Assembly: GCA_965214635.1 (NCBI GenBank)
Contig: OZ243964.1
Location: 1,011,575-1,075,574, forward strand
From: Dehalococcoidia bacterium
GTDB taxonomy: Bacteria > Chloroflexota > Dehalococcoidia > Lucifugimonadales > JADFKI01
DNA: 64,000 nucleotides
Direction of reading: 5' to 3'
A program made the position numbers and the translations under genes. The first letter of the stretch is position 1, and each line of letters opens with the position of its first letter. Positions 3,355 to 19,672 of this stretch are shown one piece after another. The notes beneath the pieces were generated by a model, which saw only the letters and a list, made by a program, of their open reading frames with translations, made no database searches and had not been told where the DNA came from.

Positions 3355-3372
3355 GCTCCCATAAGCGGCGAC

Positions 3373-5475
3373 CTATCTATTGTATTTCTCGTTTGAAATG
3401 CGAATGCCCGTACTTCTACTAATTCCCAAGTCAAATGGAGGCGCTTCTCTTCGTTCTGCATCCCCTTCAATTCTGCGTAACAGGAGGTCTATGTCTTGCA
3501 AGGCATTGCATCTCTGCGAAGCGAGGTTATCCCACCTAGTGTGAAAATCGTGTCGATTTTCCAATGTCAATGCGGACGCCAATGCCCAACTTTCGCGCGA
3601 GGCGTTAGCGATGCTGCTGTTTCGGGCGTAATTCTCGCGGATTAGATTCAGTGCAGTTTGAACCAGTGGTCTTGATTCGTCTATCCGGCCTACCTCCGTG
3701 AGCAGAGCCGCCTTCCGAAGCATCCACATAGGATCGCAGTTGACGACTTCCCAGTTATCCAACCGTTGGTTTAGGGATTCAAAGTCCAGTGTGAAGATGT
3801 CCCAGAGACAGCCTTCATGCTTAATACGATGACTCACATCGATATAGTCGTTGGTGAATTGCTTCAATCTGTCGAGACGCTGTTCGAATAGCGCACGCTT
3901 GCAATCCATTCGTGCAACTGTAACGAGTGCAAGCCCTATAGCCCTCCATGCTTCTCGGATGTCGGTCCAATCACTACTCGCATCTGCAACGCCGTCTATT
4001 GTGCGCTTCTCGCAGTCTATGGAATTCAAGACTTCCTGTGCTTTTGCCTCAAGGTTCGGAGTGAGTGGCTCGAGCAGTATTTCTCGCTGCCAGATCAGTT
4101 CACGAACGGCGTATAGTCGCTCTACTGGGGTGAGTCTAGGCAAAGCATTTAGGATTGCCGGTTCCCAACTATAGATGTGCCGCCTGAGTCTTTCTCGCTC
4201 GTGCCCTGAAGGAAACGCCAACCAACCCGGATACAATAGCCTATTGTGCTTCCAAACTTTGATAGTTTCCCTGCCTCGCTCTGATTCTTCCTTTTCATCG
4301 AACAGGTTTGTACTGTTTCGATTCCATTCGGGTTGTTTTTGAGGGACGGCAGATACGAGTTCCTGAACAGGTTGAAGCAACTCGGGTACATCTCGCTTAT
4401 CTTGGACAGGAGGCGAAGGCCAAGTCGTCTGGTCATAAGGCTTTCCATTTTCCAGTGTGTGTAGCACCCATATCGTTGCGTATTCATGACGCAAGTGTTC
4501 GGGCCACTGATGAGCCTGCGGATGACGAGCAAGGTCGATGGGAACGATGCCCCGATCTTCCATCATACGCCGTCTGTGAATGGATAGGTCGAGCCAGCCG
4601 GCTAAGTATATCTTCGGCGCGGCGGCACCTAGATTGTCGCGTACCCAGCCTGACCATTGCAGAAAGTTCGGGTCGTCGCCGGAGAAGCCTATGAGACAGA
4701 AAACGGTCTCCATCAGCGCCTGCTGCACGGTATTCACGAACGGAGCGTACTCCGTAGGATATGTTCTGTAGTCTTCCTGAGTGAATATGAGCGGGAATTG
4801 CGATGGAAGGGACCCGTGCAGCTTCACGATGCGCGGCTGACTCTTGAGTGGAAGTTCATAGGAGTTTTGAACTACACTGTACGCGCGCTCAGTTATCGCG
4901 GTTCGCTCCAATAGCGTGTCCCAGTTTGTCGTGAACACATCGCGCCAGGGAAGACGCAATAGGCGTCGATGCACATCACCGGGATTAAACTCATTATCTC
5001 TGACGAGTTCTTGCAAGAACTTGTGTAGGTCGTTGCGACCGAAGCCCGTCTCGTATTCTTGTGCCAGTCTCAGCGCATCGTAATCTGGTCTCGTGTCCAG
5101 AGATGTATTTTGCGACCCGTCGTTTGTGTACTGCGGATATAGCCTATGAAACATCTCTCTTGCGATGTCCCGCCATAGAGGAATACTGTTCCCATCCGGT
5201 TGTGTGGGTTTTGCACTCCTACTGAAGCCGGCTCCGACCATAATCGACGCCCTACCGTTAGGTTGCTCCCATAAGGCATCTCGCACCCGGTTGATATGGC
5301 TCTGGTCTGGGAAAGACGAGAATTGAGACAACAACCCGGCTCCTGTAATTCCACGATACATCGGATAGAGACGATTTCGGGGTGTGCTTCTAGCCCCGAA
5401 CACTGGTCGGCCATCATTGCCCTCACCACCCCAATGCCCGCTAATCGAGCTTGAATGGCTCGTAGGTGAGATCAA
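3373..5475 (-). CDS. SIR2-like (SIR2_2 / defence-associated sirtuin type) protein with ~380-aa helical C-terminal domain
   Basis: Motifs IMVGAGFS, FTTNWDTLLER (catalytic Asn), IVKLHGS (catalytic His) and LIGFSGDDPNF. The track start at 5475 is TTG and overlaps the hsdR remnant, so ATG at 5361 (MYRGITG) is a plausible true start. Confidence 0.85.
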   Translation of the reverse strand: MISPTSHSSSISGHWGGEGNDGRPVFGARSTPRNRLYPMYRGITGAGLLSQFSSFPDQSHINRVRDALWEQPNGRASIMVGAGFSRSAKPTQPDGNSIPLWRDIAREMFHRLYPQYTNDGSQNTSLDTRPDYDALRLAQEYETGFGRNDLHKFLQELVRDNEFNPGDVHRRLLRLPWRDVFTTNWDTLLERTAITERAYSVVQNSYELPLKSQPRIVKLHGSLPSQFPLIFTQEDYRTYPTEYAPFVNTVQQALMETVFCLIGFSGDDPNFLQWSGWVRDNLGAAAPKIYLAGWLDLSIHRRRMMEDRGIVPIDLARHPQAHQWPEHLRHEYATIWVLHTLENGKPYDQTTWPSPPVQDKRDVPELLQPVQELVSAVPQKQPEWNRNSTNLFDEKEESERGRETIKVWKHNRLLYPGWLAFPSGHERERLRRHIYSWEPAILNALPRLTPVERLYAVRELIWQREILLEPLTPNLEAKAQEVLNSIDCEKRTIDGVADASSDWTDIREAWRAIGLALVTVARMDCKRALFEQRLDRLKQFTNDYIDVSHRIKHEGCLWDIFTLDFESLNQRLDNWEVVNCDPMWMLRKAALLTEVGRIDESRPLVQTALNLIRENYARNSSIANASRESWALASALTLENRHDFHTRWDNLASQRCNALQDIDLLLRRIEGDAERREAPPFDLGISRSTGIRISNEKYNR

Positions 5476-5640
5476 AGACCCGACTGTTTAGCCAATCGCG
5501 AAAACCGGCGTTCTCGGTGTACTGCTTGTACAGTTCCGTGTTACAGCGCACCATGTCTGTGATCCGGCGGCATATGGCAGCGTCGTGCTCAATCCGCGCG
5601 TTCTGCCGGTCCGAGTTGAGCATGGCGTTGTGGTAGGCTG
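5441..5640 (-). pseudogene. hsdR: probable C-terminal remnant of type I restriction subunit HsdR
   Basis: The frame reads ...ARIEHDAAICRRITDMVRCNTELYKQYTENAGFRDWLNSRVFDLTYE, which resembles the conserved extreme C-terminus of HsdR proteins. It is offset by one frame from the hsdS fragment. No helicase or nuclease part is present. Confidence 0.35.
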
Positions 5641-6101
5641 CGCTGGTAAGCAGTGGTCTTGCTTTGTAAAACTCGAAAGAGATAGACGCCGTTTAGCGTT
5701 GCCTGCAAGGGTCGCAGCAATGCTAGGTGGTAACCGCAAACCAAATCCTGTGCCGCATATTCGACAAATGCAGGCACTCCGATGTCAGTCCATACTTCGG
5801 AATCCTTTGTAATCAGGACATCGCCTGTTTCCAGCCTAAAGCGCTCTATTTCATTTAGGGTTGCAGTGGCGCGCATGAATCTGATGTTATGGGTAATACG
5901 GTCGTTGTTATAAACATCAACATAGTTACAAAGCTGGACTGGAATCTCGCCGTCTTTGGCGTGCTTGTCAACGTTGCTCACCCTTATATCTACTATACTT
6001 CGCATTCGCCGCACCTCCCAATGTGCCGGCACATCTCCCAGCCATGGGACGCTCGATGTCCTGTACTTTGGGTATGCAGGAATCATCTTTTTGATTTTCA
6101 T
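5589..6101 (-). pseudogene. hsdS: type I R-M specificity subunit HsdS, truncated after the first target-recognition domain
   Basis: VPWLGDVPAHWEV...GDVLITKDSEVWTDIGVPAFV...DLVCGYHLALLRP...YLFRVLQS is typical HsdS TRD sequence. The ORF then runs into unrelated sequence and stops, with no central or second TRD. ATG at 6101 overlaps the TIR stop as ATGA. Confidence 0.65.
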
Positions 6102-6658
6102 GATGACCACCCGTATGAACAGTTACCGCTCCGGTTGCGGCTGTATTGCCGGCGGCTGTTGTTGGGCGGTGTTCCACCTCGCCTCTGAAATGCGGTGTGG
6201 ATCCAATTTCTGATGGAGTTGCCATCTTGTGTCCAGTGGTATATCCGGGCGAAAGGATCGTTGCCGTTACAGTTGTCCGCTAGTCGTGGTGGGATAAGTC
6301 TTGGGTTATATGTCCTGTGCCGATAGTTGGCGTGGCTAGGCAGTAATATGCCGAGCAGTCCGCATCTTGAGTTCAATCGCGTGTCTCGCAAGCTGGAGCC
6401 GATTTCCCAATCAACGTGCTTGCGCTGCCAAGTGCAAGGGCCGATGAGCACCACCGTGACGGTTGCGTCTCTGATGAATCGGTCCCTGATGTACTGGCGG
6501 ATTGTCTCTGTGGCGAGGTTTTCGTCGTCGATGTCGCCATCCTCTACTGATTGGTCAACCATGTCGTTGTCCATGAACTGCACAAACCGATCTTTGTAGG
6601 CTTGGTCAGCGTGATGGAAGCTGACGAAAACTTTATGCCTCGGTGCTTGTTGGTACAA
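6098..6658 (-). CDS. TIR-like domain protein (DUF1863 / ThsB-like)
   Basis: HKVFVSFHHADQAYKDRF...ATVTVVLIGPCTWQRKHVDWEIGSSL...LLGILLP...IPPRLADN...YHW matches the MTH538/DUF1863 TIR-like pattern, including the conserved Glu. The TTG start is preceded by AAGGAG 6 nt upstream, inside the 3' end of the previous gene. Confidence 0.8.
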   Translation of the reverse strand: MYQQAPRHKVFVSFHHADQAYKDRFVQFMDNDMVDQSVEDGDIDDENLATETIRQYIRDRFIRDATVTVVLIGPCTWQRKHVDWEIGSSLRDTRLNSRCGLLGILLPSHANYRHRTYNPRLIPPRLADNCNGNDPFARIYHWTQDGNSIRNWIHTAFQRRGGTPPNNSRRQYSRNRSGNCSYGWSS

Positions 6659-7157
6659 GTGGTTCTCCTTTTGGGTCTTGTGGGTCAGGGAATCCAGTTA
6701 CTCCAGCGATTTTCTGCAGTTGCTCGACGTAATTCAGCAAGTGTTTTTGTAGTTCTGCAAGCTCGGTTCGGAACTCCTGTTGTTTCAACTTGTCGTTGAA
6801 GGCACCAGATAGGGCTTCACGGTGCCATTTGGTAGTAAATGGGCGCACTCCCTGGTTCAGCATGGCGATGGCTACCTTACCGCACTCATTAGCCGGCTGT
6901 CCGTGTCGCCGGAGTATTTCACGAGTAGTCGGGAATAACGAGTACAAGCTATGTAGGGCTGTACTTTCGTCACCGCTTTCATCACCCATTGGTTGGGTGA
7001 CTACAGTAGTAGCCATCTCGACATACAGCTCCCAAGCAGCAAGTTTATCAGCGTCCTTGAACGAAGCAGTCCAGGAAATTGAGGCCGTTCCGGGCAAGCT
7101 CAACCGCACTGTCATTGACTGCGAATGTACTCGCCTGAATAGATTTGGCATCTTCAT
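6633..7157 (-). CDS. hypothetical 174-aa soluble helical protein, translationally coupled between hsdM and the TIR gene
   Basis: ATG 7157 overlaps the hsdM stop as ATGA, and the 3' end overlaps the TIR start by 26 nt. No TM segments and no recognised domain. Confidence 0.65.
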   Translation of the reverse strand: MKMPNLFRRVHSQSMTVRLSLPGTASISWTASFKDADKLAAWELYVEMATTVVTQPMGDESGDESTALHSLYSLFPTTREILRRHGQPANECGKVAIAMLNQGVRPFTTKWHREALSGAFNDKLKQQEFRTELAELQKHLLNYVEQLQKIAGVTGFPDPQDPKGEPLVPTSTEA

Positions 7158-9175
7158 GCTGGATTCCCTGAGATGATACTATTCAATAGCCCTTCGCTTT
7201 CCTGCTCCAATGCCAGAATATCGGCCCGTATCTCTTCCAGAGGACGCATGGGTTCTGGCTTGTAGAAGTGGCGGTTGAAGCTGATTTCGTAGCCGATTTT
7301 CACTTTGTTCGGGTTGTACCAAGCATCGGCGGCATAGGGCAGCACCTCACGGCGTAGGAAGGCTTCGATGCCGCTATCATACAGCAACGGTATCTGCTCG
7401 GTGTCCCGCAACTGCGGGTCCGGCTCGTACTCCACGACTGCGGGCTTGCCCTCGATGGTGGCGGAGAATAACCCGTTCAGCGGAGCGGCTTTGGCGCTCT
7501 TGCGGTGCGCTTTCTTTATGACCGGCGTTGCGTCCTTGTCCCGTGTTCCGGTGGAGCGAAGTTGCCTAATCTCGGCAGCTTTATAGACTTTTTCCGGGGC
7601 TGTGCCTTTGATTCGCAGTGGTCTATCGACGGTAACCTTCCAGTAGCCGAAGGCGGCGTTGGGAAAGATTTTGGACTCCGCCGTTTCCTCGAAAGCCAAG
7701 AAAGTGTCGGTGATGCGCTCAATGTCGGCTGGCGACAACTCGCAGTTCTTCTGCCCCAAGTTCTTGCGTAGCGGCGTGAACCATCCTGTGGCGTCAATCA
7801 GCTGTATGCTGCCCTGCCGATGGGACGGTTTGCGATTGGTGAGCACCCAGATGTAGGTGGCGATGCTGGTGTTGTAGAACATATTGAGAGGCAGTGCGAC
7901 GATGGCTTCCAGCCAGTCGTTTTCGATAATCCAGCGGCGTACATTGCTTTCGCCCTGTCCGGCGTCGCCGGTGAACAGGGAACTGCCGTTATGGACTTCG
8001 GCGATGCGGCTGCCCAATGGGGTGTCAGGCTTCATCTTGCTGAGCATATTGGCGAGGAACATCATCTGCCCGTCGCTGACCCGAGTAGCCAGGGAATACT
8101 CAGGGTCATCGGCGTGCTGTATAACGAACCTGGGATCGTTCATCCTTGTCCTGCCGCCCATGCGGTCGCGGTCGGTCTTCCAGCTCTTGCCGTAAGGCGG
8201 GTTGCTGAGCATAAAGTCGAAAGTTTGGGTCTTAAAGGCGTCGTTGGACAAAGTGGAATGCTGGGGGCCGCCGATGATGTTGGCGTCCGCGCCCTGCTCG
8301 CCTTTGAGCAGCAGGTCAGCCTTGCAGATAGCGTAGGTCTCAGAGTTGACCTCCTGCCCATAGATGTGAGTTGACACGGATTTGCCGCGCTGCTCCGCCA
8401 AGCCCTGAAGCGTCTGCTCGGCGATGGTGAGCATTCCGCCGGTGCCCAAAGCGCCGTCGTAAAGCAGGTAGGTGCCTGATTGAATATGGTCGGCAACCGG
8501 ACGGAAAACCAGTTGCGCCATTAGCTCAACGGCATCGCGCGGCGTCCAGTGCTCGCCGGCTTCCTCATTGTTTTCCTCGTTAAATCGGCGCACAAGGTCT
8601 TCAAATATGGTGCCCATGGCGTGGTTATCCAAACCGGGAAGCCGTACCGAGCCGTCTGCGTTCAACAACGGCTCTGGGCTGAGGTTGATATCCGGGGATA
8701 GGAACCGCTCGATGAGAGTAGCGAGAGCGTCGCCCTCCGACAGGCGGTTGAGCTGGTTGCGGAACTCGAACTTTTCCAAGATGTCTTGGACATTAGGAGA
8801 AAATCCGTCCAAGTATGCGGTGAAATCGGATTTGAGCTGCTGCTGCGACGCGCGGGACGATAAATCCCTCAGGGTGAATGGCGAGGTGTTGTAGAAGGCT
8901 TGTCCAGCAATCTGTTGCAACACGCTGTCTTGTTCCAAGATGACGGCATCGTCAAGCCACTGCTTTTCTGCCAAAACTTTCTGCTTGGTAGGCTCCAGCA
9001 CGGCGTCGAGGCGGCGTAGAACGGTCATAGGCAGGATAACATCACGGTATTTGCCGCGCACATACAGATCTCGGAGTATGTCATCGGCGACGCCCCAGAT
9101 GAAGTTGGAAATTCGGTTGAGTTGGGAGTCTTGCATGGATGCCCCGAATGAGCGTCTCTTAAGCACAACCGCCAC
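7154..9175 (-). CDS. hsdM: type I restriction-modification DNA methyltransferase subunit HsdM (long form)
   Basis: N-terminal HsdM_N-like FIWGVADDILRDLYVRGKYRDVILPMTVLRRLD, the LSNPPYGKSWK (NPPY) catalytic motif, and a C-terminal IGYEISFNRHFY tail. The likely true start is ATG 9136 (MQDSQLN). Confidence 0.9.
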   Translation of the reverse strand: MAVVLKRRSFGASMQDSQLNRISNFIWGVADDILRDLYVRGKYRDVILPMTVLRRLDAVLEPTKQKVLAEKQWLDDAVILEQDSVLQQIAGQAFYNTSPFTLRDLSSRASQQQLKSDFTAYLDGFSPNVQDILEKFEFRNQLNRLSEGDALATLIERFLSPDINLSPEPLLNADGSVRLPGLDNHAMGTIFEDLVRRFNEENNEEAGEHWTPRDAVELMAQLVFRPVADHIQSGTYLLYDGALGTGGMLTIAEQTLQGLAEQRGKSVSTHIYGQEVNSETYAICKADLLLKGEQGADANIIGGPQHSTLSNDAFKTQTFDFMLSNPPYGKSWKTDRDRMGGRTRMNDPRFVIQHADDPEYSLATRVSDGQMMFLANMLSKMKPDTPLGSRIAEVHNGSSLFTGDAGQGESNVRRWIIENDWLEAIVALPLNMFYNTSIATYIWVLTNRKPSHRQGSIQLIDATGWFTPLRKNLGQKNCELSPADIERITDTFLAFEETAESKIFPNAAFGYWKVTVDRPLRIKGTAPEKVYKAAEIRQLRSTGTRDKDATPVIKKAHRKSAKAAPLNGLFSATIEGKPAVVEYEPDPQLRDTEQIPLLYDSGIEAFLRREVLPYAADAWYNPNKVKIGYEISFNRHFYKPEPMRPLEEIRADILALEQESEGLLNSIISGNPA

Positions 9176-9305
9176 TCATTCCGGCGGTGTCCACTGTTCC
9201 GCATCTGATGTCTCGGTTTTGGGACGCATTGTTATTGCCTCTATTGTAGCATCCTGACAGATTGTGCTTAAGTAAAATTTATGTCGGTGGTACAGTCGGA
9301 ACCTA

Positions 9306-9575
9306 GGTAGCGTTTCCATTCAGGTGGTGTATGGCAGAAGCCCCCGGCGTTGCAGCAGTACCCGCAGGTTGTGATGCGTCCACGCCGTACCCATTCGCTC
9401 CAGACGCCTTATCTCGCGCTGAAACCGCTCCAACCGAGATGTGGTCCTGTATCTAAACTGCTAGTACCCAGATGCGCCAGTCCTTTACCCAGCGTCTTCT
9501 TGCACCAAATCAGCCCACGATTACCCGTCAACTTCATTATCCGAGCAACCAACTTCCTTGCCTCAGGCAAGTCTT
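9306..9575 (-). mobile_element. one-ended partial IS copy (terminal repeat plus ~250 bp of transposase 3' end)
   Basis: Positions 9306-9327, GGTAGCGTTTCCATTCAGGTGG, are identical to the terminal repeat of the IS at 12316. The following ~250 bp align with 12338-12578 with many substitutions and a short indel. Similarity stops about 28 bp before the E2-E1 stop codon. Confidence 0.8.
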
Positions 9576-9602
9576 AAAGCAGTCTAATGTGAGATAAAAA
9601 GC

Positions 9603-11030
9603 TCATTGGGATGTGTGTGCGTACGATGTTGGCACAGAAACCCTCCCGATTTGGTCAAATGGAGGCTCCAGAATGGCCCGATAGACATCAACTACTTCAT
9701 CAGAGAATTCGTGGCGTCCAGTCATTGTATCCACCGTGACTTGCACAATTAAAGAAGCGCAAGCAAGCACCGCCGACGGAGGGGCGTTGTTCACAGGCGC
9801 AGAGCAACCCAATTGAGGAACCGCGAACTCCTCAGATTCGTCTCCAACAGGAATTTCCGGATACCGTGATAGATCCTCACGCTGGTGAATGAGAGTATCA
9901 TCCGGCAGAGCCTGTCGTTGCACCCTACCGATAAATCCCCCGCGGTAGAGCGCCCCGGAAACCAAGGGCTTCTCTATAGCCCCAGCGACAACTGCCAGCG
10001 AGTAGGTCAGAGCTTCGTTTCCCGTAGTGTCAATAACGATGTCGGCGTCCGCTACGCGCTCGCGCAACTCCATTGGTGTGCGTGCTGGGGGCGACTTCTT
10101 GAAGACACTGACTGTTGTCCATGGCGCATGTGCTTCGATCGCGGCTTTTACCGCGTCCACCTTGGGTTTGCCTACTTGATCGTGTCCAGCGACATGTCTG
10201 ACGACATTGCCCGGCAGCAGTACATCATAATCGACGATCTCTATGGAACCTATCCCGCTCTCGGCAAGTGTCAATGCTGTGTGTCCACCAAGTGCGCCCG
10301 CTCCAAAAACGACTGCTTTGCAACAGCGTAAAGTGGATGCGTCGGCACCTGCCCGAAGAATCAAGGTTTGCTCATCGTTCGGTCCGGGTTGCAACGCTAT
10401 CATCTCCTCAGTGTCTCCTACGCCTTTACACGCCATGACCAGGAGGTCCGTCCTCCCACGCCATTCCCAGCAGAAGAGAATGATGTCAATTCCACCGCTG
10501 GCAACGAGTTCCTGAGAATTCCGCCGTTCTGCAAGCGCCTTCCGGAGTCCCCTGCGCTGCTTTCTCGGTAGGCTAGCTAAAACTTCCGAAAGTTGACGCG
10601 GTGGCGGCGACTTCAATTCGCCCACATGGAACCACATCCCGCGCAGTTCATTCCCCAACCGCTTGCGCCCGGGGAGAATATCCACTCGCATAGGATTAAG
10701 ATTAACCAATCCTCGACAGTCCCCCCAGCCGCCTCTCCGAATACCGAGTGTTGGCAGGTTGAAAATCGCCGCGATGGCGGATTGCGCCTTGAAATTCAGA
10801 AGAGCGTCGAGTCCCAGATCCTGTCCCTCCCAGCCAAGCTTGGCATTCTCACACCATTCTTCAATTCTCGAAAACAGTCCCTCAGCCGTAGTCCATTCCG
10901 GGCTGAAGTCGCCATCCTGCCACAAGCATACGAACCCGTCTAGCGTAGAATGGTTGGTGTTGAGTCCCTGCACGAAAAGGGCGGGCGGTTGAAACGGCCA
11001 TCCAGGCGCAATATAAATATCCATCGCCAC
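9603..11030 (-). CDS. Cap2-like fusion of an E2 (UBC-like) domain and an E1 (ThiF/MoeB adenylation) domain; N-terminus disrupted
   Basis: E2 core IAPGWPFQPPALFVQG...HSTLDGFVCLW (HxxxxGxxC). E1 Rossmann VVFGAGALGGHTALTLAESGIGSIEIVDYDVLLPGNVVRH, with a later GCSAP Cys. The ORF starts at GTG just after an in-frame TAG. Confidence 0.8.
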   Translation of the reverse strand: MAMDIYIAPGWPFQPPALFVQGLNTNHSTLDGFVCLWQDGDFSPEWTTAEGLFSRIEEWCENAKLGWEGQDLGLDALLNFKAQSAIAAIFNLPTLGIRRGGWGDCRGLVNLNPMRVDILPGRKRLGNELRGMWFHVGELKSPPPRQLSEVLASLPRKQRRGLRKALAERRNSQELVASGGIDIILFCWEWRGRTDLLVMACKGVGDTEEMIALQPGPNDEQTLILRAGADASTLRCCKAVVFGAGALGGHTALTLAESGIGSIEIVDYDVLLPGNVVRHVAGHDQVGKPKVDAVKAAIEAHAPWTTVSVFKKSPPARTPMELRERVADADIVIDTTGNEALTYSLAVVAGAIEKPLVSGALYRGGFIGRVQRQALPDDTLIHQREDLSRYPEIPVGDESEEFAVPQLGCSAPVNNAPPSAVLACASLIVQVTVDTMTGRHEFSDEVVDVYRAILEPPFDQIGRVSVPTSYAHTSQ

Positions 11031-11038
11031 CGCGTCCG

Positions 11039-11176
11039 TCAGCTCCTAAAGGCCGGGTGGATTGCCCCGCGCCATTTCCGGGCATTGTAGCCATCGATGG
11101 GCCTGAATCCCAACGTCTTCAGATCTGAGATAAATCCCTCAAGCGAGTCCTCGTAAAAGTGTTCCTGTCCAGCCAT
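11039..11176 (-). other. 45-codon ORF encoding the detached N-terminal helix of the E2 domain (frameshift fragment)
   Basis: MAGQEHFYEDSLEGFISDLKTLGFRPIDGYNARKWRGAIHPAFRS* would read straight into ELTDAVAMDIYIAPGWPF if one nucleotide were restored near 11036-11045. Confidence 0.6.
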
Positions 11177-11353
11177 CTTCTACCCAAACCTGCGCGCTTC
11201 ATTGCGTCGCGCTACCGGTATGCCCGAACCAGCAGTAGCGCTCACGCCGGACCTATTGGCTGTGCCGCTCCGAGAGTCGCTTGCGACACTGCGTTCGCTT
11301 CCACTGCTATCAGACGAACCTTATTGCGACAACAAACCGCCGCATCAGAAAAG

Positions 11354-11386
11354 GGGGCAGAGCGAAACGCTCTGCCCCCTTTTTTC
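11354..11386 (-). terminator. bidirectional intrinsic terminator downstream of the LRR gene
   Basis: GGGGGCAGAGC-GAAA-GCTCTGCCCCC is an 11-bp perfect stem flanked by AAAA on one side and TTTTTT on the other. It lies 50 nt after the LRR stop. Confidence 0.75.
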
Positions 11387-11435
11387 CGGCGTGCTAGCCT
11401 TTGTCGCTAGACGCTACGGATGTTGCCGATACCCG

Positions 11436-12329
11436 TCAATCGCAGGACGACAGCCCTAACTCTGCCATGTCGTTGTCTTCCACATCGAACAGCGCCGCAG
11501 GTATGCACCCTGTTATGTCGTTGGAGTGGAGATGCAATACCCTCAGGTTAGCAAGGTTGCCCAACTCAGCGGGTATCGCGCCCGCCAGACGGTTGCGGTA
11601 GATAGACAAGAGATTCAGGTTAGCAAGGTTACCCAACTCTGGTGGTATTGCCCCACTTAATTGGTTGTCATTGAGACGCAACCGCGTCAGGTTTGTAAGG
11701 TCGCCTAGTTCTGCCGGTATCTCACCCGTTAGTCGGTTTTGCGAAAGTGTCAACTTCTTCAGGTTAGCAAGGTCGCCCAACTCAGCGGGTATCTCACCCG
11801 TCAGCCTCGTGTTAATCAGCTCCAACTCTTCCACCCGATCTTTAGCCTCTACCGTGCTTGCCACAGTTACGCCACGCCACTCGCGGATAGAGCGATCTGC
11901 CGACCAATTCAGCACTATGTTGCCATTCGTGAAGGATTCCAGCGCTGCCAGCAGGTTCGTGCAATCCGCCACTAGACCGGGGTTCGAAGCCGGCTCTGGT
12001 ACAGCCGTGCCGCTGGAGCAGGTGGCTTCCGGTGCCGGCGTAGGCGTAGGCGTCGGCGTAAGTGTCGGTGTCGGCGTCAGTACTGGCGTAGGCGTAGGCG
12101 CAGGTGTTGGTGTCTGCGTAGGCGTGAGTACTGGCGTAGGCGTAGGTGTTGGTGTCTGCGTAGGCGTAGGTGTTGACATCGGCGCGCAGAACAACAGGCC
12201 CGTATCTGCCAAATCGTTGTTTCTCACACCAAACAGCGCCGCTGGTATGCACCCCGTCAGGCTGTTGTTGCTCAGCCACAACGATGTCAGGTTAGTCAAG
12301 TCGCCCAACTCAGACGGTAGCGTTTCCAT
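11436..12329 (-). pseudogene. 5'-truncated plant-type LRR protein with PT-rich linker; apparent ATG supplied by the IS terminal repeat
   Basis: [15 protein letters not shown]-type 24-residue LRRs, a [12 protein letters not shown] linker and a Cys-capped module end ([26 protein letters not shown]). The ATG at 12329-12327 lies inside the IS repeat 12316-12337. It is a paralogue of 57197..60166. Confidence 0.75.
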
Positions 12330-13338
12330 TCAGGTGGTCGAAGACAGAAGCCCCCTGCGTTGCAGCAGTACCAGCAGGTTGTGATGCGTCCACGCTGTGC
12401 CCATTCGCTCACGACGCCTTATCTCTCGCTGAAACCGCTCCAACCGAGATGTGGTCTTGTATCTAGACTGACCAGTACTCAGATGAGCCAGTCCCTTAGT
12501 GCACCAAATCAACCCACGACCACCCGTCAACTTCACTATCCGTGCAACCAACTTCCTTGCCTCAGCCAAGTCTTCTGACATCAGCAACTCTTTGGCTTCG
12601 TCCCAGCCCACTTCGCCTATATTGCGCTTGTACTCCCGAAGCTGATGGGCTAGACCATTCCAATGGCCTCTGCTATCGCTCTGTCCCCATCGCTCACTAG
12701 GTGGGCAGGCTGTCTCATCCCACGCTCATAGGCTTCGGTCAGCGTGTCTTCCCAACTCCCGAACGACGCCATCACACCGCCCTTGTCGTCCCGGAACACC
12801 TTCATCTCCTGCTTCCCGCCACGAACACCCACCCACACTCCGTCCATCTCCGACACATCGCCAGTAAGCTCAGGTCGCTCCAACTTCTCCTGCTTGAGCC
12901 ACTTGCACAGGGCGCTCTTGGCGAACCCATACAGATCACCGACCTTGGCATAACTCAACCCCATCGCCGCCAGTCTCACCGCCTCTTCACGCGTTTTTTT
13001 GAGTACGACTTGCGGCGCTCCACATCGCCCACTAGTTCCATACCACTCTGCATATCTCCGCACTTCCCACATCTGAACACGGGCATTGCCAAGTTCACTG
13101 CGCCATACTTGGTGATGAGTGTGCGTCGATAGCTGTGGTGGCGTGCCATCGCTAGGTCGCAGGCTTTGCACATCGGCTTGTAGAGCATCAGCGCATCTTG
13201 AAGCGTGTCTTGTATTTCCTGTGTAACCGTCTTTTCTGCTTGCTCTTCCAGTCGGTATAGCATACCCATTCGTTTCCCCCCTCTGGTAATGGCTTACGCC
13301 TCATTCTACAACTCAACCACCTGAATGGAAACGCTACC
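12316..13338 (-). mobile_element. IS element (~1 kb) with 22-bp perfect terminal inverted repeats and a frameshifted DDE-type transposase
   Basis: GGTAGCGTTTCCATTCAGGTGG at 12316-12337, with its exact reverse complement at 13317-13338. Flanking bases differ (CAGAC vs AACCC), so there is no target-site duplication. Confidence 0.85.
12330..13269 (-). pseudogene. transposase split over three frames
   Basis: ORFs 12976..13269 (Zn-ribbon-like CKAC...RCGKCG), 12650..13171 (HTH-like LSYAKVGDLYGFAKSALCKWL, MDGVWV, VSDGDRA) and 12330..12611 (RLERFQREIRRRERMGTAWTHHNLLVLLQRRGLL). IS family not assigned. Confidence 0.7.
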
Positions 13339-13339
13339 A

Positions 13340-13348
13340 ACCCGCCAG
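13340..13348. repeat. left copy of 9-bp target-site duplication AACCCGCCA of the IS1-family element
   Basis: Identical 9-mer at 14186-14194, immediately outside the IS1 inverted repeats. Confidence 0.85.
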
Positions 13349-13414
13349 GTATTCTCAACATACAGAGATAATGAGTTATAATATGTCATAACATCAAACA
13401 CAGTGAGGTATCTT

Positions 13415-13699
13415 ATGGCCCGTGAACGTACCTATCGCCACGATATTCGCTGCATCGACTGCGGCTCTAACTGGATGCGCAAAAACGGACTAGCGCGCGG
13501 CAAGCAGTCTTACAGATGCGGAGACTGTGGTCGCCGCTACTTCCCAGAGGCTGCATATCACCGCCCCAGCGCTGCCCTCAAGGCACAGGCGGTTAAGATG
13601 TATCTGGAAGGCAGCAGTTTGAGCGCCGTAGGCAGAGTGTTTGGGTACAGCGCCACAGCGGTTCACGGGTGGGTGAAAAAAGGGGGCGTGAGGCATTAG
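13415..13699 (+). CDS. insA: IS1 InsA-like protein (Zn finger + HTH)
   Basis: CIDCGSNWMRKNGLARGKQSYRCGDCGRRYF...AVKMYLEGSSLSAVGRVFGYSATAVHGWVKKGG. Confidence 0.85.
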   Translation: MARERTYRHDIRCIDCGSNWMRKNGLARGKQSYRCGDCGRRYFPEAAYHRPSAALKAQAVKMYLEGSSLSAVGRVFGYSATAVHGWVKKGGVRH

Positions 13700-14178
13700 A
13701 GCGTCTGCGGGAGCGTGGTCGTAGACGGACTGAGGGGGCAGAGGCGCAGCGTGCTGCTGCGGTGGTGTCCTGTGATGAGATGTGGACATACAAGCGTGCT
13801 CGGCGTGCGGAGTTGCGTGAAGATGTGTGGATATGGACAGCAGTGGTAGAAGAGGCTGACGGCAGCAGGTGGGTGGACTTTGAGGTGGGCGACCGCAGCG
13901 AGAGGACATTCTTGCGCTTGTATGAGCGCTTACCGGATGCAGAGTTGTATCGCAGTGATGCATATCCTGTGTATCGGTGGTTTCCTCGCAACCGGCATGT
14001 GGTGGGGAAGGGAGGTGCGGTGAACTGGAATGAGGGGCTGCATTCGGTATGGCGAAGTAAGTTGAACCGATTAGTGCGTCGTACAAAGGGCTACACCAAG
14101 AGCATACAGATGCTGGTGTATTCGTTGGCGCTAGTGTGCTGGCATCGGTGGGTAAAATCCAATATCACTGCATGTTAA
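13669..14178 (+). CDS. insB: IS1 InsB-like transposase frame (expressed as InsAB by -1 frameshift)
   Basis: VSCDEMWTYKRARR...VWIWTAVVE...YRSDAYPVYRWF...NEGLHSVWRSKLNRLVRRTKGYTKS. It overlaps insA at GTGAAAAAAGGG. Confidence 0.85.
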   Translation: MGEKRGREALERLRERGRRRTEGAEAQRAAAVVSCDEMWTYKRARRAELREDVWIWTAVVEEADGSRWVDFEVGDRSERTFLRLYERLPDAELYRSDAYPVYRWFPRNRHVVGKGGAVNWNEGLHSVWRSKLNRLVRRTKGYTKSIQMLVYSLALVCWHRWVKSNITAC

Positions 14179-14185
14179 GAATACC

Positions 14186-14194
14186 AACCCGCCA
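14186..14194. repeat. right copy of 9-bp target-site duplication AACCCGCCA
   Basis: See 13340-13348. Confidence 0.85.
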
Positions 14195-14292
14195 TCCTCA
14201 CTTGACATCCCGCCCAACATACCCTACCATATCCTCATATACGAACATATGTACCTCAAAATCCAGCCACCCCTAACACAAACACCAACGCC

Positions 14293-15363
14293 ATGCTCCA
14301 AACCGCCATCCAAAAACTCACCAACAACGGCGACCTCATCGCACACTTCCTAGTACAAACAATGCTAGGCACAACCCCGCACGCCAAAGTCTGCCACCAA
14401 CTCCAAGCCACCAAACTACTCATCAAATTCGGCTTCACAGACCTAAACACCAACGACATCACACACACCACACCCCAACAACACCCGACAGCACTCCCAG
14501 ACTCCTCCCAAGACCATCAGCAACCCACCACCATAACCCCAACCCACATCCTCAACTACGAAATCGCCCGATACATCCGCCAAGAAACCTCCAACGGCGA
14601 AAACCTCGCACGCTTCCTAGTCGAAATCATGCACAAAGACGAACCCCAATTCTCAACACAAACCATCAAGCCCCAACACCGCATCGCAGCCGCCAAAGAA
14701 CTACTCAACCGCGGCTTCGGAAACCTCAACCCAAACAACACATCCCGCCAAACCACCCTCGACCAGCAAGACCACTCAGCACTACACACAGACCTAGCCA
14801 AACACATCCGCGCACAAACCGGACACGGCATAGACACCGCACGCTTCCTCATAGAAGTCGTGCAAGACGGAGCAAACAGCGGCTTCAAACCCCACCACAG
14901 GCTATCAGCCGCATCCGAACTGCTGCGCCGCGCCTACGACATCCCCTACGAACACATCAGCTGGCAGCACATCGAAGCCTACTACAAGACCCAAACCCCA
15001 CCCGATGCACCCTCCATCGAAGAGCCGTCCCCCACTCTCGCCCCCATCCCCACAGACATCGACCCACTCCAAAAAGCCACAACACCGCTAAACACCAGCG
15101 CCAGCAAACCCAACTACCCCGACACCCCGTTCAATCCCAACGCCGAAACCATCCCCGAAGACACCGACACCCTCACACCCGAAGAACTAGACGCCCTAGC
15201 CGACGCCGACATCGAATACTACGACCCACCCACCGACGAAGAATACGCCCAATGGCTCAAAACCATAGACCTCGCCTACCCCCCAGACGACCAGCCCAAC
15301 GAACTCAACGACCCCATCCGAACCGCACACTCACCCATCCAACCCAACGCCCGCAGCCCATAG
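14293..15363 (+). CDS. hypothetical protein with three ~70-aa internal repeats and an acidic/Pro-rich tail
   Basis: Repeats contain (A/H)(R/H)FL(V/I)(E/Q)... followed by H(R/Q)xxA(A/T)(K/S)(E/L)L(L/I)(N/R/K)(R/F)(G/A)(F/Y). The ORF lies in a G-poor strand where spurious ORFs are easy to obtain, so the repeat structure is the main support. Confidence 0.5.
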   Translation: MLQTAIQKLTNNGDLIAHFLVQTMLGTTPHAKVCHQLQATKLLIKFGFTDLNTNDITHTTPQQHPTALPDSSQDHQQPTTITPTHILNYEIARYIRQETSNGENLARFLVEIMHKDEPQFSTQTIKPQHRIAAAKELLNRGFGNLNPNNTSRQTTLDQQDHSALHTDLAKHIRAQTGHGIDTARFLIEVVQDGANSGFKPHHRLSAASELLRRAYDIPYEHISWQHIEAYYKTQTPPDAPSIEEPSPTLAPIPTDIDPLQKATTPLNTSASKPNYPDTPFNPNAETIPEDTDTLTPEELDALADADIEYYDPPTDEEYAQWLKTIDLAYPPDDQPNELNDPIRTAHSPIQPNARSP

Positions 15364-15411
15364 CCCAACGCAACCAAACACAGCAAACCGCACAAAACCA
15401 AATAAGAAAAG

Positions 15412-15485
<74 letters not shown>

Positions 15486-15674
15486 AAACACACACGCACA
15501 AAAAACAAGATCAGCGTCCACAAAACCAAACGCCAACCTAATTCTATCCCCACACCCCCATCCCGTCAACAATTCCACATCCAAAACTCGCAGCCACACC
15601 AACCCTATACACATAACTCACAAGCAACCACATCAGCTTGAATGCCCATGCCCCATACCCGCACGGACTAAAAA

Positions 15675-16835
15675 TCAATCCCTAAGCAACCCCGGCAGCC
15701 GCCTCAACGCATCAACATCCCGCGCCGAAGCATGAAAATCCAAATACGGCAACACCGCCCGCAAACTCCGCGTCAGCGGCTCATAATCAGCGCCCCCCAA
15801 CAGCGGATTAAGCCACACCAACCGATACACCCGTCGCCGCATCCGACGCGCCTCCCGCCCAAGACGCTCCGGCTCACCAGTATCCCAGCCATCGCTCAAC
15901 ACAAACACCGTCGTATCCCGACCCAGCACATACTCATACCGACCATTCACATACGCCAACGCCTCCCCGATGCGCGTCCCGCCCGACCACCCAGACACCA
16001 CACCCCCAACACGCTCCATCGCCTCCACAAAAGACGGCGCACCCAACTCCCGAGTAACACGCCGAACCATCGTACTGAAAACGAAAGTCTCCACCCGCCT
16101 CGTATGCTGTGCCACCGCAAACACAAGCTGCAACAACAACCGCACATGCCGCTCCATAGAACCGCTCACATCCAACATCACCAGCAAGCGCGGCGTGCGC
16201 GGAACACGGCGCCTGCGCGGCAAAACCAACGGCTCACCCCCGCTGCTCATACTCAGCCGAAACGCAGCGCGCAAATCCGGACTACCCTTACGCCGATGCC
16301 GCCTCCGCCGCCGACCCGGACGCACCGACATCGCACGCGCCATCCGCGCCGCAATCCGCCCCAGCTCATCCAACTCATCCGCACGCAACACCGTAAGATC
16401 CCGTTTAGACCGCACATGCCGAGCACTCGCACCCCTCCGAACCATCTGCACAAGCGTATTCTCAGAACCCTCATCCTCATCCGGCAGCAACGCAGCGCTC
16501 GGCGTCCGCCGAAAATCCTTAGCGCCACCAACAAGCCCATCATCCCCCTCTATATGCGGACGCAACAGCAACGGCTCAAAGTTCCAAAACCGCTCAAACA
16601 CCGCATCATATATCGGAATCTCATCCCGCCGAGACAACAGCAGCGACCGCAACGCCCAATACACCCGCCCCCTATCCATCACATCCACAGCACTCATAGC
16701 CCGCAGCGTATCCGCCGTCTCCGTAGGCCCCACCAGCAGCCCGTGCGAGCGCAGCACACGACAAAACCGCGTCAAATGCGCCACAAAATCATACCCGCCC
16801 GAAGCCTGCCCAAGTCCGTCGATGCCGTTAGTCAA
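15675..16835 (-). CDS. VWA domain protein, CoxE-like
   Basis: LLVMLDVSGSMERH (MIDAS DxSxS), GGTRIGEALAYV, TTVFVLSDGWDTGEPE, RLVWLNPLLG. TTG start. No CoxD/MoxR partner is adjacent. Confidence 0.85.
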   Translation of the reverse strand: MTNGIDGLGQASGGYDFVAHLTRFCRVLRSHGLLVGPTETADTLRAMSAVDVMDRGRVYWALRSLLLSRRDEIPIYDAVFERFWNFEPLLLRPHIEGDDGLVGGAKDFRRTPSAALLPDEDEGSENTLVQMVRRGASARHVRSKRDLTVLRADELDELGRIAARMARAMSVRPGRRRRRHRRKGSPDLRAAFRLSMSSGGEPLVLPRRRRVPRTPRLLVMLDVSGSMERHVRLLLQLVFAVAQHTRRVETFVFSTMVRRVTRELGAPSFVEAMERVGGVVSGWSGGTRIGEALAYVNGRYEYVLGRDTTVFVLSDGWDTGEPERLGREARRMRRRVYRLVWLNPLLGGADYEPLTRSLRAVLPYLDFHASARDVDALRRLPGLLRD

Positions 16836-16949
16836 CTTACCCTTACAGCCACATCCTTAATCAGAATTATCGAAGACACGAGCATACCCGCCATCTCTCC
16901 GCCCCGGCCTAGAGTCACGGATTTTGACCATAAACCACACTCCACCCAC

Positions 16950-17750
16950 TCACCCTACTATGTCACAACCCAAAAACTGCCGACCCATCATCTTCGCTGC
17001 ACTCAACACAGAATAGCTCCCAGCCGCCGGATCCAGTACCACATCGCCCGGATCCGTTACCGCTTCAATCAACGCCGCTTGCAGTTCTACAGGCTTCGGG
17101 TGAGCATGACGGTCTCTAACAGCCAACTCACTCCACACATCCGGGATATTATGGCGTTGCCACACACCCTTTGCACGCTTAGGAGGTTTCTGAGCTATCA
17201 CGAGGTATTCCGCTTGACGGCGTGTCCGATAACCCATACCCATGCGTCCCTTGTCCCATGTAACAAGGTCAACTATCTCCAATCCATGCATTTCCAGCCA
17301 CCCGCGTACACCGGTACAAAAAAGATGAAACTTGTCCACCCAAAGCATCAGATGACCAGACGGAGTGAGCACCTTTGAGATGCCATCTATAAAACGCAGT
17401 ATCGTGTCTTCATTCATCTGTGGCAACGCAGACCGCGCTCGCCCGCGGCTGACGCCTTCATTGCCATACTGCATCTTGTCCAGTATCCCTCGATACTGGG
17501 GATCAAAGAAGCACACCGGCACAGAGGCAGACTCCATTGCTCCAAGCAAGTCAAGCCCGTCGTGCCGGTTGCGTTGGTTTAGAGCCAGCGGCAACTTGCG
17601 CTGGCTCACCTCATCGAACCCAGTACCAACCGGGACATCCCTAGTCGTAGAGAAGACATTCATGGCTATTACGCTTAATTCCTCGCTACTCCATCCGCGA
17701 GCCGCCCCAAGCGCGAGACACACCCGCCGCCGTCGGCTCCACGATGACAT
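16950..17750 (-). CDS. orphan beta-class N4/N6 DNA methyltransferase
   Basis: CFFDPQY (DPPY-like motif IV) precedes [32 protein letters not shown] (motif I region). The likely true start is ATG 17663, which removes the overlap with the upstream gene. Confidence 0.8.
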
Positions 17751-19326: not shown

Positions 19327-19672
19327 TATGGATGCTCCTTAATAAATATCGATCGTCGGCTTCCAATGCCAGCAAGCCAGTCGCTCCTAGCCCGTGGCCA
19401 GCAGCCGTCAATGATTGCCTGTCGGTTATTAGCGGCTGTCCAACCCAAGACGCTGAAAGCCTATCACATTGCAGTTATTTAGCCAAACACCCAACTCACA
19501 GATGGAGCAGAATGAATATGCACAGCGCGGATGCCTCACAACCTGCTGATACTGCCGCAGCGGTGCGGGATGCTGCCCTCCACCACCTGCATGGAAACGC
19601 TACCATGCGGTGCATTGAAGTCCTTTTAGCTCGACATTCGGCAATCGCAGGCATGATGCTATGGAGCATCGC

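Follow-up and report, generated by a model that had tools for sequence, protein, structure and literature searches.

The closest described counterparts of the gene considered here are the Cap2 proteins of type II CBASS, in which an E2-like domain, a linker domain and a ThiF-type E1 domain are joined in one chain, as in E. cloacae (PDB 7TO3/7TQD) and V. cholerae. In these systems the cap2 gene lies directly 3' of the gene for the CD-NTase, the cyclase, and both the mechanism of Cap2 and the conserved cyclase C-terminus, which reads ...TGRFA in E. cloacae, have been established (bioRxiv 10.1101/2022.03.31.486616). A relationship between Cap2 and the eukaryotic ATG7 has been described in the same study, although in eukaryotes the E2 (ATG10 or ATG3) is a separate protein and the substrate of ATG7 is a Ubl (ATG8/ATG12) rather than a cyclase tail. 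MoeB, ThiF and Uba4 have the homologous Rossmann-type adenylation domain with its glycine-rich ATP loop, but neither an E2 nor a linker domain. The Bil and Bub operons also bring E1 and E2 chemistry together within defence islands and, like the 6A-MBL systems, depend on a Ubl encoded by its own gene and on a peptidase. It is highly probable that positions 9603-11322 on the minus strand of the 64-kb stretch of DNA analysed here (the window) are the remains of a three-gene anti-phage operon of the CBASS type II family, and that the Cap2 encoded there is an orphaned, young pseudogene in the decaying defence island of a genome that resembles those of Dehalococcoidia. The locus is a known kind of system that has undergone ordinary gene decay.

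The segment 9603-11176 is a single gene for a Cap2-type E2-E1 fusion, which has been broken into open reading frames (ORFs) of 45 and 475 codons. The main part (9603-11030, minus strand; stop codon at 9603-9605) is a 475-aa ORF that covers residues ~50-524 and, as judged from Pfam, PADLOC, homologues and fold, contains the remainder of the E2 domain, followed by the linker and E1/ThiF adenylation domains. The 5' part, with the first 44 codons, which provide the E2 domain with its N-terminal helix and its first strand, is located in a 45-codon ORF at 11039-11176 (minus strand), which ends in a premature TGA and matches the N-termini of the Cap2 proteins from loci L001, L002 and L005 with 52-58% identity (tblastn, E=1e-9 to 8e-13). 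A preliminary description of this DNA had reported the two ORFs in different frames and had taken them for a Cap2-like E2-E1 fusion; both ORFs were recovered on the minus strand, at 475 and 45 aa, and the interpretation was borne out by the HMM and structure comparisons with Cap2 that it had proposed. The PADLOC E1-E2 model PDLC00847 matches the joined protein from end to end (E=2e-172; residues 5-519 of 524, model positions 2-518 of 523). After repair, the window Cap2 is 524 aa long and 74-80% identical to intact homologues of 517-525 aa, and 117 of its 120 best homologues, with lengths of 511-574 aa, cover at least 97% of it.

For the fold, an intact homologue that is 80% identical to the window Cap2 (P0002) was modelled with AF2 (pLDDT 76), and the best match of this model in the PDB was the full-length E. 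cloacae Cap2 (7TO3_A; E=4e-19, 601 aligned columns, TM 0.52), as against a TM of ~0.3 for E1-only structures. ATG7 provided the second-best full-length matches (4GSK and 3VH1; E ~1e-11, TM only ~0.33), a ranking in agreement with the published Cap2-ATG7 relationship (bioRxiv 10.1101/2022.03.31.486616), and the BubCD structure 9EAV was found at rank 24. The E2 domain of the model consists of helix 9-21, four strands, including strand 34-38, the invariant Cys84 and helix 93-113. Unlike the solved Cap2 proteins of 600 residues, the window Cap2 has ~520, with ~15% identity in the structural alignment, and sequence searches of solved structures detect the E1 domain alone; the family profile matched the Cap2 E1 structures 7TSQ, 7TSX and 7TO3 at 1e-15, and MoeB scored about as well as Cap2. 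Because the sequence searches see nothing but the E1 domain, it is the fold search, together with the PADLOC model, that supports the assignment of the E2 domain. All of the ~100 invariant residues of the family are retained in the window Cap2, and the glycine-rich, ATP-binding GAGALGG loop is invariant in 55 family members. Two cysteines are likewise invariant, Cys84 in the E2 domain (GFVCLW) and Cys458 (GCSAPVNN), the latter at the position expected from the offset to E. cloacae C548 and within a loop modelled at a pLDDT below 50 (residues 447-463). Their invariance, position and the fold match suggest that they are the putative equivalents of C109 and C548 of Cap2.

Intact relatives of the operon were found at the loci L001-L006, L018-L021 and L023, which represent seven distinct operons. 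In all seven, the genes for a patatin, which is the CapV-type effector also known from type II CBASS, a SMODS cyclase and Cap2 follow each other in this order, with 2-5 nt between the end of the cyclase gene and the start of cap2 in each intact relative examined. In the six intact relatives other than L018, no further operon gene comes after cap2. According to the precomputed Pfam assignments of the called genes, none of the seven operons contains a Cap3/JAB or Ubl gene, and neither does the window. The lack of these genes in the window had been read as a loss in the preliminary description, but since the intact relatives are also without them, it is a feature of the clade, which differs in this respect from the type II CBASS systems with Cap3. 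A scan of genome contigs yielded only Dehalococcoidia relatives that are more distant, and a megablast search gave no plasmid matches to 9176-12330.

One of these loci, L018, is located on a contig that is syntenic with the window and 96-99% identical to it, and carries the genes for a leucine-rich repeat (LRR) protein, the CapV phospholipase, the CD-NTase, Cap2 and HsdM in this order. In L018 and the corresponding L019, which are near-identical to the window, CapV-patatin, CD-NTase and Cap2 are still present at the same chromosomal position, and the L018 proteins are recognised as CBASS_lipase (NF041079, 4e-67, above the NCBIfam cutoff) and PADLOC Cyclase (1e-111). This comparison with an intact homologous locus, which the preliminary description had recommended, supports its view that the gene was left stranded from a type II CBASS operon and places a 2.3-kb deletion in the window. 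No contig other than L018 showed synteny with the window. The ancestral state is taken from this one relative, which has a rearrangement of its own in that its Cap2 is without the last ~20 codons.

The ~2.3 kb missing from the window correspond to L018 5332-7630, that is, the region with the CBASS promoter, capV and the cyclase gene from codon 1 up to codon ~294, or 86% of its length. The breakpoint was located by two BLAST blocks, L018 4633-5331 with window 12020-11322 (89.6% identity) and L018 7631-9290 with window 11322-9667 (96.3% identity), and by the junction sequences. At the junction, 11322/11323, DNA from beyond the terminator of the LRR gene meets cyclase codon ~295, with ~1 nt of microhomology. 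What is left of the cyclase gene is the last 46 of ~341 codons (GSSDSSGSERSVASDSRSGTANRSGVSATAGSGIPVARRNEARRFG, followed by the stop codon) at 11183-11322 on the minus strand, recognised from tblastn, DNA homology and translation: it is 73.5% identical to residues 308-341 of the L001 cyclase over 34 aa (tblastn, E=1e-8), and the DNA homology to both L001 and L018 extends up to 11322. The remnant has an in-frame TAA immediately 5', no start codon and no promoter, with an in-frame GTG inside, and its end, ...ARRNEARRFG, stops 6 nt before the ATG of cap2. It is the disordered C-terminal tail of the cyclase that Cap2 would adenylate, ending in R-F-G here and in G-R-F-A in E. cloacae. The earlier statement that no CD-NTase gene is present holds for an intact or functional gene, of which the window has none, but not for these last 46 codons. 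Nor does the window contain an effector gene, the patatin gene of L018 falling inside the deleted 2.3 kb. With tblastn, no homologue of the cyclase or the patatin was detected in the rest of the 64-kb window, and none of the ten flanking ORFs and 40 other window ORFs matched the PADLOC models for Cyclase, Jab or the CBASS effector.

On the 5' side, the cyclase remnant is preceded by the intrinsic terminator of the LRR gene at 11345-11385 (minus strand), a hairpin of -40.4 kcal/mol (z = -6.4) that was identified by direct folding and missed by a consensus terminator scan, and that is also present after the LRR gene in L018. This terminator insulates the Cap2 remnant from read-through. Beyond it lies the 3' part of the LRR-repeat gene (11436-12315, minus strand), identified from the Pfam LRR families, its 89.6% identity to L018 4633-5331 and a comparison of the C-termini. 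Its ORF of 297 aa, as compared to 863 aa in the relative, has been truncated at the 5' end by an insertion sequence (IS) at 12316, and the ATG of the ORF (12329) is inside the terminal repeat of that element (12316-12341). The terminator and LRR pseudogene noted earlier on this side were in this way recovered. The IS copy (12316-13338, minus strand) is 1023 bp long with 26-nt terminal inverted repeats (inverted repeat I1), and its transposase frame is fragmented and weakly ISH6-like (NCBIfam 1e-6, far below the cutoff). On the 3' side, a 270-bp IS fragment (9306-9575, minus strand) with a single terminal repeat, as had been described, begins 27 bp past the cap2 stop codon, between cap2 and hsdM. 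It was delimited by the direct repeats D3/D4 and the inverted repeat I2, and shares 86-92% identity with one end of the 1023-bp copy (86% with 12316-12574). The hsdM gene for a Type I R-M methylase (7154-9175, minus strand; Pfam N6_Mtase/HsdM_N, PADLOC MTase_I 1e-237) is next after cap2 both here and in L018, with 94.7% identity to L018 9296-11365. A truncated hsdS is also seen among the eroded genes of the defence island.

The reading frame of cap2 is not intact in the window, being split at 11044-11046 (minus strand) in a short run of G residues, as seen in DNA alignments with relatives. The site reads TTT AGG AG CTG in the window, TTC AGG GGG GAG CTG in the closest relative and TTC AAG GAG CTG in the more distant L005, so that the GG at 11045-11046 corresponds to GGGGGG in the closest relative and to an in-frame AAGGAG in other homologues; no other relative has lost the frame at this site. 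The preliminary description had predicted that one added nucleotide near 11036-11045 would give a continuous protein, and a single G at the GG of 11045-11046 is indeed sufficient to return the frame (...HPAFRELTDAVAMD...). In the 1660 aligned bases of the cyclase and cap2 genes shared with L018, the frameshift is the sole indel. Two homologues that begin at the invariant Met52 (P0040 and P0119) suggested that the frameshift might be recurrent or programmed, or that an internal start might be natural, but this was rejected: in one case (L023) the gene is continuous in frame with a mis-called start, and in the other (L022) an IS630-like element has interrupted it at codon ~18.

We considered several other explanations for the locus. 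That the protein is a sulfur-carrier adenylyltransferase of the MoeB/ThiF type with an unrelated N-terminal extension would be in line with the similar sequence scores of MoeB and Cap2 against solved structures, confined to the E1 domain, and with ThiF (PF00899; 1e-23, above the gathering score) being the sole Pfam domain recognised in the 475-aa ORF. However, the best scores to the MoeB/ThiF families of NCBIfam were 60-67 bits against cutoffs of 266-647 (e.g. 67 versus 266), the window Cap2 has 275 residues of N-terminal E2 and linker domains that these enzymes are without, and there is no MoaD/ThiS gene near it. The gene context, with Cap2 immediately past a CD-NTase gene in every intact relative examined, and the full-length matches to the PADLOC model, to Cap2 and then to ATG7 refute this identity, the chance of which we consider negligible. 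A system of the Bil, Bub or 6A-MBL type would depend on a peptidase and on a separately encoded Ubl, neither of which is present in the window or its relatives, and the 6A-MBL cap2_3 family (NF058523) matches the E1 domain only (2.8e-23, 82 bits versus a cutoff of 320). With regard to how the Cap2 operon was lost, the preliminary description had suggested that its partner genes were lost through a deletion mediated by an IS (an adjacent deletion). The one-ended IS fragment abuts the 3' end of cap2, two further copies or fragments of the same IS occur within 10 kb, and cap2 has been cut by IS elements in other relatives, beside an IS1-like element in L011 and by the IS630-like element in L022. 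The junction at which capV and most of the cyclase gene disappeared is nevertheless free of IS sequence, and the DNA on either side of it is native in L018; because of this, IS-mediated deletion is rejected at the 5' junction. Furthermore, the IS fragment lies on the other side of cap2, beyond the last gene of the operon, while on the 5' side no IS is closer to the junction than the one at 12316, at a distance of 1 kb occupied by native LRR-gene and terminator sequence collinear with the relative. The stretch 9261-9666 is wholly absent from L018, and the window may have lost other DNA on this 3' side of cap2. Taken together, an IS-mediated loss of the partners appears improbable, and the 2.3-kb deletion, as judged from the sequences it joins, looks like illegitimate recombination without IS boundaries.

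The frameshift could also be a sequencing or assembly error, a true G3 read as G2, in which case Cap2 would be an intact protein of 524 aa, though still an orphaned one. The site is a homopolymer, one G gives the usual length of the family, every invariant residue is kept, and the source contig of 2.67 Mb suggests long reads, for which the change from G3 to G2 is a plausible error. Against this, the window differs from the Illumina-assembled L018 by 6 indel events over 9.8 kb, only one of which is in the cap2 coding sequence, and therefore homopolymer errors are not frequent in the window assembly; widespread errors of this kind were not supported. The difference to the closest relative is also 4 nt (G6 versus G2) rather than the typical change of one. 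We consider an error unlikely, and even if true it would not rescue the system, from which capV and most of the cyclase gene have been deleted. Yet another explanation is that of a stand-alone or trans-acting conjugation enzyme, either the 475-aa product started from GTG 11030 or ATG 11024 or the repaired full-length protein, with a substrate that is a cyclase or something else encoded elsewhere, or a short peptide from the retained cyclase tail. In its favour, the GTG is preceded at 12 nt by an SD-like AGGAG (11043-11047), Met52 is among the invariant residues of the family, neither the catalytic cysteines nor the ATP loop has been altered, and the 46-codon tail has a GTG in frame. However, the product of the internal GTG, which the preliminary description had offered as its alternative, is without residues 1-49, so that the E2 fold would lose helix 9-21, strand 34-38 and the conserved F7, S11, F15, F24 and W35. 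The two homologues with an apparent start at Met52 are due to a mis-called start and an IS truncation, the native promoter has been deleted, a strong terminator lies upstream, and the 64-kb window contains no partner. We judge this explanation to be very improbable. It is highly improbable, as a special form of it, that the frameshift is an error or is bypassed and that the orphan Cap2 has kept working, by priming a cyclase elsewhere or by conjugating the 46-codon tail peptide (...RRFG); in the latter, more exotic form, the retained cyclase tail would be a minimal ubiquitin-like tag.

We therefore return to the decayed type II CBASS operon. The mechanism of the intact system was established in the work on E. 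cloacae and V. cholerae, and we infer that it applied to the system of the window. The ancestral operon would have had three genes, for the capV phospholipase, the CD-NTase cyclase and Cap2. The E1 domain of Cap2 would have adenylated the glycine in which the cyclase tail ends (...RRFG), and the tail would then have moved to the E1 cysteine, Cys458, and to the E2 cysteine, Cys84, before being ligated to a target amine. The cyclase would be primed by this conjugation to produce a cyclic nucleotide, by which the phospholipase would be activated and the infected cell killed. The comparison with the 96-99% identical relative shows that the 2.3-kb deletion took the promoter, capV and the first ~294 cyclase codons, leaving the 46-codon tail fused behind the LRR terminator. 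The frameshift in the G-run separates the first 44 codons of cap2 from the rest, and an IS fragment is found just past the stop codon. As a result of the deletion and the frameshift, the remnant has no substrate gene, effector gene, native promoter or intact frame, and the orphan Cap2 is very probably non-functional. Its inactivation appears to be recent, since the invariant residues are kept and the dN/dS against L018 is 0.31, as compared to 0.13-0.16 for deeper pairs; apart from the frameshift, cap2 shows no decay, which also fits a gene still under selection.

Our findings matter little beyond the annotation of the locus, which should be given as a cap2 pseudogene and a cyclase gene fragment rather than as a ‘ThiF family adenylyltransferase’ and a hypothetical protein, and which is to be left out of any count of CBASS systems. 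It does provide a clean, datable case of the erosion of a defence island, in which a relative with 96-99% identity separates each event, such that a microhomology-level deletion, a frameshift in a G-run, IS insertions and truncations and a truncated hsdS can be told apart. The Chloroflexota clade of CBASS systems, with Cap2 present and Cap3 absent in the seven operons examined, may be of interest for research on the deconjugation of cyclases. If the clade is truly without Cap3, the conjugation of the cyclase would be irreversible, or it would be reversed by another enzyme.

The protein belongs to a known family, and the system is of a known type. When the two open reading frames are joined by one added G, the 524-residue product matches the PADLOC CBASS "E1-E2" model PDLC00847 end to end (E=2e-172; residues 5-519 of 524, model positions 2-518 of 523). 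This bears out the Cap2-type E2-E1 fusion proposed in the preliminary description. Pfam recovered a ThiF domain alone from the long frame (1e-23), and plain sequence comparison with solved structures detected the E1 domain alone. Hundreds of relatives emerged from a search of 5.8 billion proteins; among the best 120, 117 have lengths of 511-574 residues and span at least 97% of the repaired protein, with identities of up to 80%. The AlphaFold2 model of an intact, 80% identical homologue (P0002; mean pLDDT 76) has the full-length Cap2 of Enterobacter cloacae as its top PDB match (7TO3_A; E=4e-19, 601 aligned columns, TM 0.52), with ATG7 next and E1-only proteins, among them MoeB, Uba4 and UBA5, at a TM of ~0.3 at most. 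In this model, a helix (9-21), four strands, the invariant Cys84 (GFVCLW) and a long helix (93-113) precede a beta-rich linker and a Rossmann E1 domain, which carries the invariant GAGALGG loop and the invariant Cys458. A placement among MoeB/ThiF enzymes without an E2 fold was rejected, since the NCBIfam matches of this kind all fall far under their cutoffs and the homologue's predicted fold is best matched by full-length Cap2; the profile and structure comparisons suggested earlier thus agree.

As read from the assembly, the gene is frameshifted. The long frame (11030 to 9603, minus strand, 475 codons) and a 45-codon frame (11176 to 11039) in another frame of the same strand are both present as first described, and the smaller one is 52-58% identical to the N-termini of homologues (E=1e-9 to 8e-13). 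DNA alignments place the frameshift within a short G-run, which reads GCC TTC AAG GAG CTG in more distant homologues (L005), GCC TTC AGG GGG GAG CTG (G6) in the closest relative (L018) and GCC TTT AGG AG CTG in the window (GG at 11045-11046). Adding one G yields ...HPAFRELTDAVAMD..., as anticipated. The site is a homopolymer, and an assembly error could be the source of the frameshift. Over 9.8 kb the window differs from an Illumina-assembled relative by just 6 indel events, of which the frameshift alone falls within cap2; homopolymer-type errors are therefore not widespread in this assembly. A product started from the internal GTG or ATG would lose two elements of the E2 fold, helix 9-21 and strand 34-38, together with the conserved F7, S11, F15, F24 and W35. 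Two homologues seemed to begin naturally at the same methionine, but this was dismissed, since a mis-called start explains one of them (L023) and truncation by an IS explains the other (L022).

Two contigs syntenic with the window preserve an earlier state of the locus: L018 (GCA_964347015.1) and the Illumina/SPAdes contig L019. They encode a 512-residue protein (P0121) in the same 90%-identity cluster as the window protein. Both carry an LRR gene (863 aa), a CapV-type patatin phospholipase gene (NCBIfam CBASS_lipase, 4e-67), a CD-NTase gene (PADLOC Cyclase, 1e-111), cap2, hsdM, a short gene, an hsdS fragment and a two-ORF Dsr2 gene. BLAST aligned L018 with the window in four collinear blocks: 4633-5331 with 12020-11322 (89.6%; LRR gene 3' end and terminator), 7631-9290 with 11322-9667 (96.3%; cyclase tail and cap2), 9296-11365 with 9260-7188 (94.7%; hsdM) and 12034-17402 with 6065-696 (99.3%; hsdS fragment and Dsr2). 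Missing from the window, accordingly, are ~2.3 kb (L018 5332-7630) that comprise the CBASS promoter region, capV and the first ~294 codons of the cyclase gene. The more distant intact operons (L001-L006, L020, L021 and L023) all have the order patatin, cyclase, Cap2, which confirms that the change is a loss in the window. Comparison with intact loci, as had been recommended, thus supports the idea of a stranded operon remnant from which capV and most of the cyclase gene were deleted.

The 140 bases 5' of the Cap2 start codon (11183-11322) are coding and not mere spacer; they encode the final 46 CD-NTase residues, GSSDSSGSERSVASDSRSGTANRSGVSATAGSGIPVARRNEARRFG, up to the stop codon, with an in-frame TAA directly upstream. 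The preliminary description, which reported no CD-NTase, missed this tail, and was right in that searches of the 64-kb window found no other cyclase homologue and no patatin homologue. PADLOC Cyclase, Jab and CBASS effector models had no match among ten flanking ORFs or 40 other ORFs scanned, and the window beyond 20 kb is housekeeping (GatB, NusA, IF-2, TruB, chaperonin). The tail, Ser/Gly-rich, disordered and ending in R-F-G, is the part adenylated and conjugated by Cap2; that of the E. cloacae cyclase ends in ...TGRFA (bioRxiv 10.1101/2022.03.31.486616). Forty bases upstream of the deletion junction lies the LRR-gene terminator (-40 kcal/mol, z = -6.4), kept in L018, and with the promoter region deleted the remnant is thus left without its own promoter or read-through.

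The loss of the partner genes had been attributed to an IS-mediated deletion. The one-ended IS fragment beside cap2 (9306-9575, 270 bp) was correctly described and begins 27 bp past the stop codon, but it is located past the operon's final gene, and the deletion that killed the operon is not IS-bounded: the junction between 11323 and 11322 (...GTCGCAAT joined to AAGGTTCG...) has ~1 nt of microhomology and, compared with L018, no IS sequence. L018 has no counterpart of window 9261-9666, where the IS fragment with its flanks follows the final 21 codons of Cap2. The Cap2 of L018 has an aberrant end (...ERALRMLY), whereas the window retains the family consensus EPPFDxxGR. With a stretch missing in L018 and an IS fragment in the window, this spot has therefore been rearranged in both lineages. 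At L018 9285-9315 (window 9603-9666), the Cap2 of this otherwise intact relative is short of its last ~20 codons, and 11 nt separate its end from hsdM; the model predicts the missing tail to be disordered (pLDDT <50 at 502-525).

A longer copy from the same IS family (12316-13338, 1023 bp, 26-nt terminal inverted repeats) cuts the LRR gene, the ATG of whose remaining 297-aa ORF lies inside the IS repeat, and a third end fragment (19514-19604, 91 bp) has the opposite orientation. The terminal repeat (12316-12329, 9306-9319) ends ...CCATTC on the plus strand and, read outward, provides an ATG (METLP...) from which reading frames run into the adjoining sequence at each of the two copies: the truncated LRR gene at one, and at the other a 47-aa ORF that lies upstream of hsdM. 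Expression of neighbouring genes could be driven or re-started in this way. An IS1-family element (13403-14178) with a two-ORF transposase (98 aa + 169 aa) directly adjoins the 1023-bp copy.

The surrounding defence island is eroding generally, with a truncated hsdS without hsdR, a Dsr2 gene with an in-frame stop and IS debris. The Dsr2-type SIR2 gene (1528-5475, minus strand; L018 12858-16571) is split by one TAG (...EKYNR, stop, VAAYGS...) into two ORFs that match PADLOC Dsr2 positions 10-621 and 639-1208. The TAG is identical in the Illumina-assembled relative; therefore either both genomes share a nonsense mutation or two genes are the natural form. In the type I restriction-modification locus (5589-9175, minus strand), hsdM is present, hsdS has just 173 aa (positions 9-141 of a 435-position model) and no hsdR was seen within the window; a TGG-to-TGA change at ~9176 has closed the upstream hsdM start (MRPKTETS...) on which the relative relies. 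Between hsdM and the hsdS fragment (6066-7187, minus strand) lie a 174-aa gene without family matches and a ThsB-like TIR gene (6098-6658; Pfam ThsB_TIR 1e-17, PADLOC PDC-M50B 2.5e-10). In the relative (L018 11366-12033) the slot holds an unrelated 162-aa gene, and the difference looks like the swap of a cassette within a restriction-modification operon. Within 14200-63050, one ORF matches the candidate-system partner PDC-M50A (4e-34) and single ORFs match mad3, AriA and PtuA/B-type models; these may be generic ATPase similarities. Strand composition is extremely skewed at 14000-18000 (GC skew -0.44, AT skew +0.44 at 14-16 kb), coinciding with a 356-aa ORF (14293-15363) that contains three internal repeats (...ARFLVEIM...KPxHRxxAAxELLxRGF...) but matches nothing in Pfam or PADLOC, and with long, overlapping ORFs that occupy both strands as far as 19.5 kb.

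Degraded cap2 genes also occur in other Dehalococcoidia genomes. One is broken into small ORF fragments (L010 8001-9071), another is cut after ~210 codons beside an IS1-like sequence 74% identical to window 13769-14046 (L011 8001-9227), and in a third an IS630-like element truncates the gene at codon ~18, and neither capV nor a cyclase gene lies upstream (L022 3268-5413). These loci were found by a Cap2-based search, which biases any apparent preferential survival of Cap2.

The intact relatives should, by homology, work like the type II CBASS of E. cloacae and V. cholerae. The Cap2 E1 domain would adenylate the C-terminal Gly of the cyclase, whose tail would pass as a thioester first to the E1 Cys and next to the E2 Cys before being ligated to a target, which would prime the cyclase; a cyclic nucleotide would then switch on the CapV phospholipase and the infected cell would die. 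In the present genome this CBASS is dead, its substrate, effector and promoter having been deleted and its Cap2 being frameshifted in the assembly. The window Cap2 keeps all ~100 invariant family positions, and its dN/dS is 0.31 against L018 and 0.13-0.16 in deeper comparisons, which weakly relaxed selection and noise both fit. The inactivation is therefore recent.

The absence of JAB/Cap3 and ubiquitin-like genes had also been noted. None adjoins Cap2 in the intact relatives examined (seven distinct operons), and hence the window's lack of them does not indicate a loss. Several intact relatives have CapH/CapP-like HTH and M78-peptidase genes instead, often divergent or upstream, and sometimes a DUF3368 PIN-like gene. 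The Chloroflexota/Dehalococcoidia clade (PDLC00847; L001-L006, L018-L021 and L023) combines patatin, CD-NTase and Cap2 with no Cap3/JAB nearby, and a phrase search of a paper collection turned up no account of Cap2 operons that naturally lack Cap3. This clade-wide absence of Cap3 is the sole mildly unusual point of a locus that represents the ordinary decay of a known system type.
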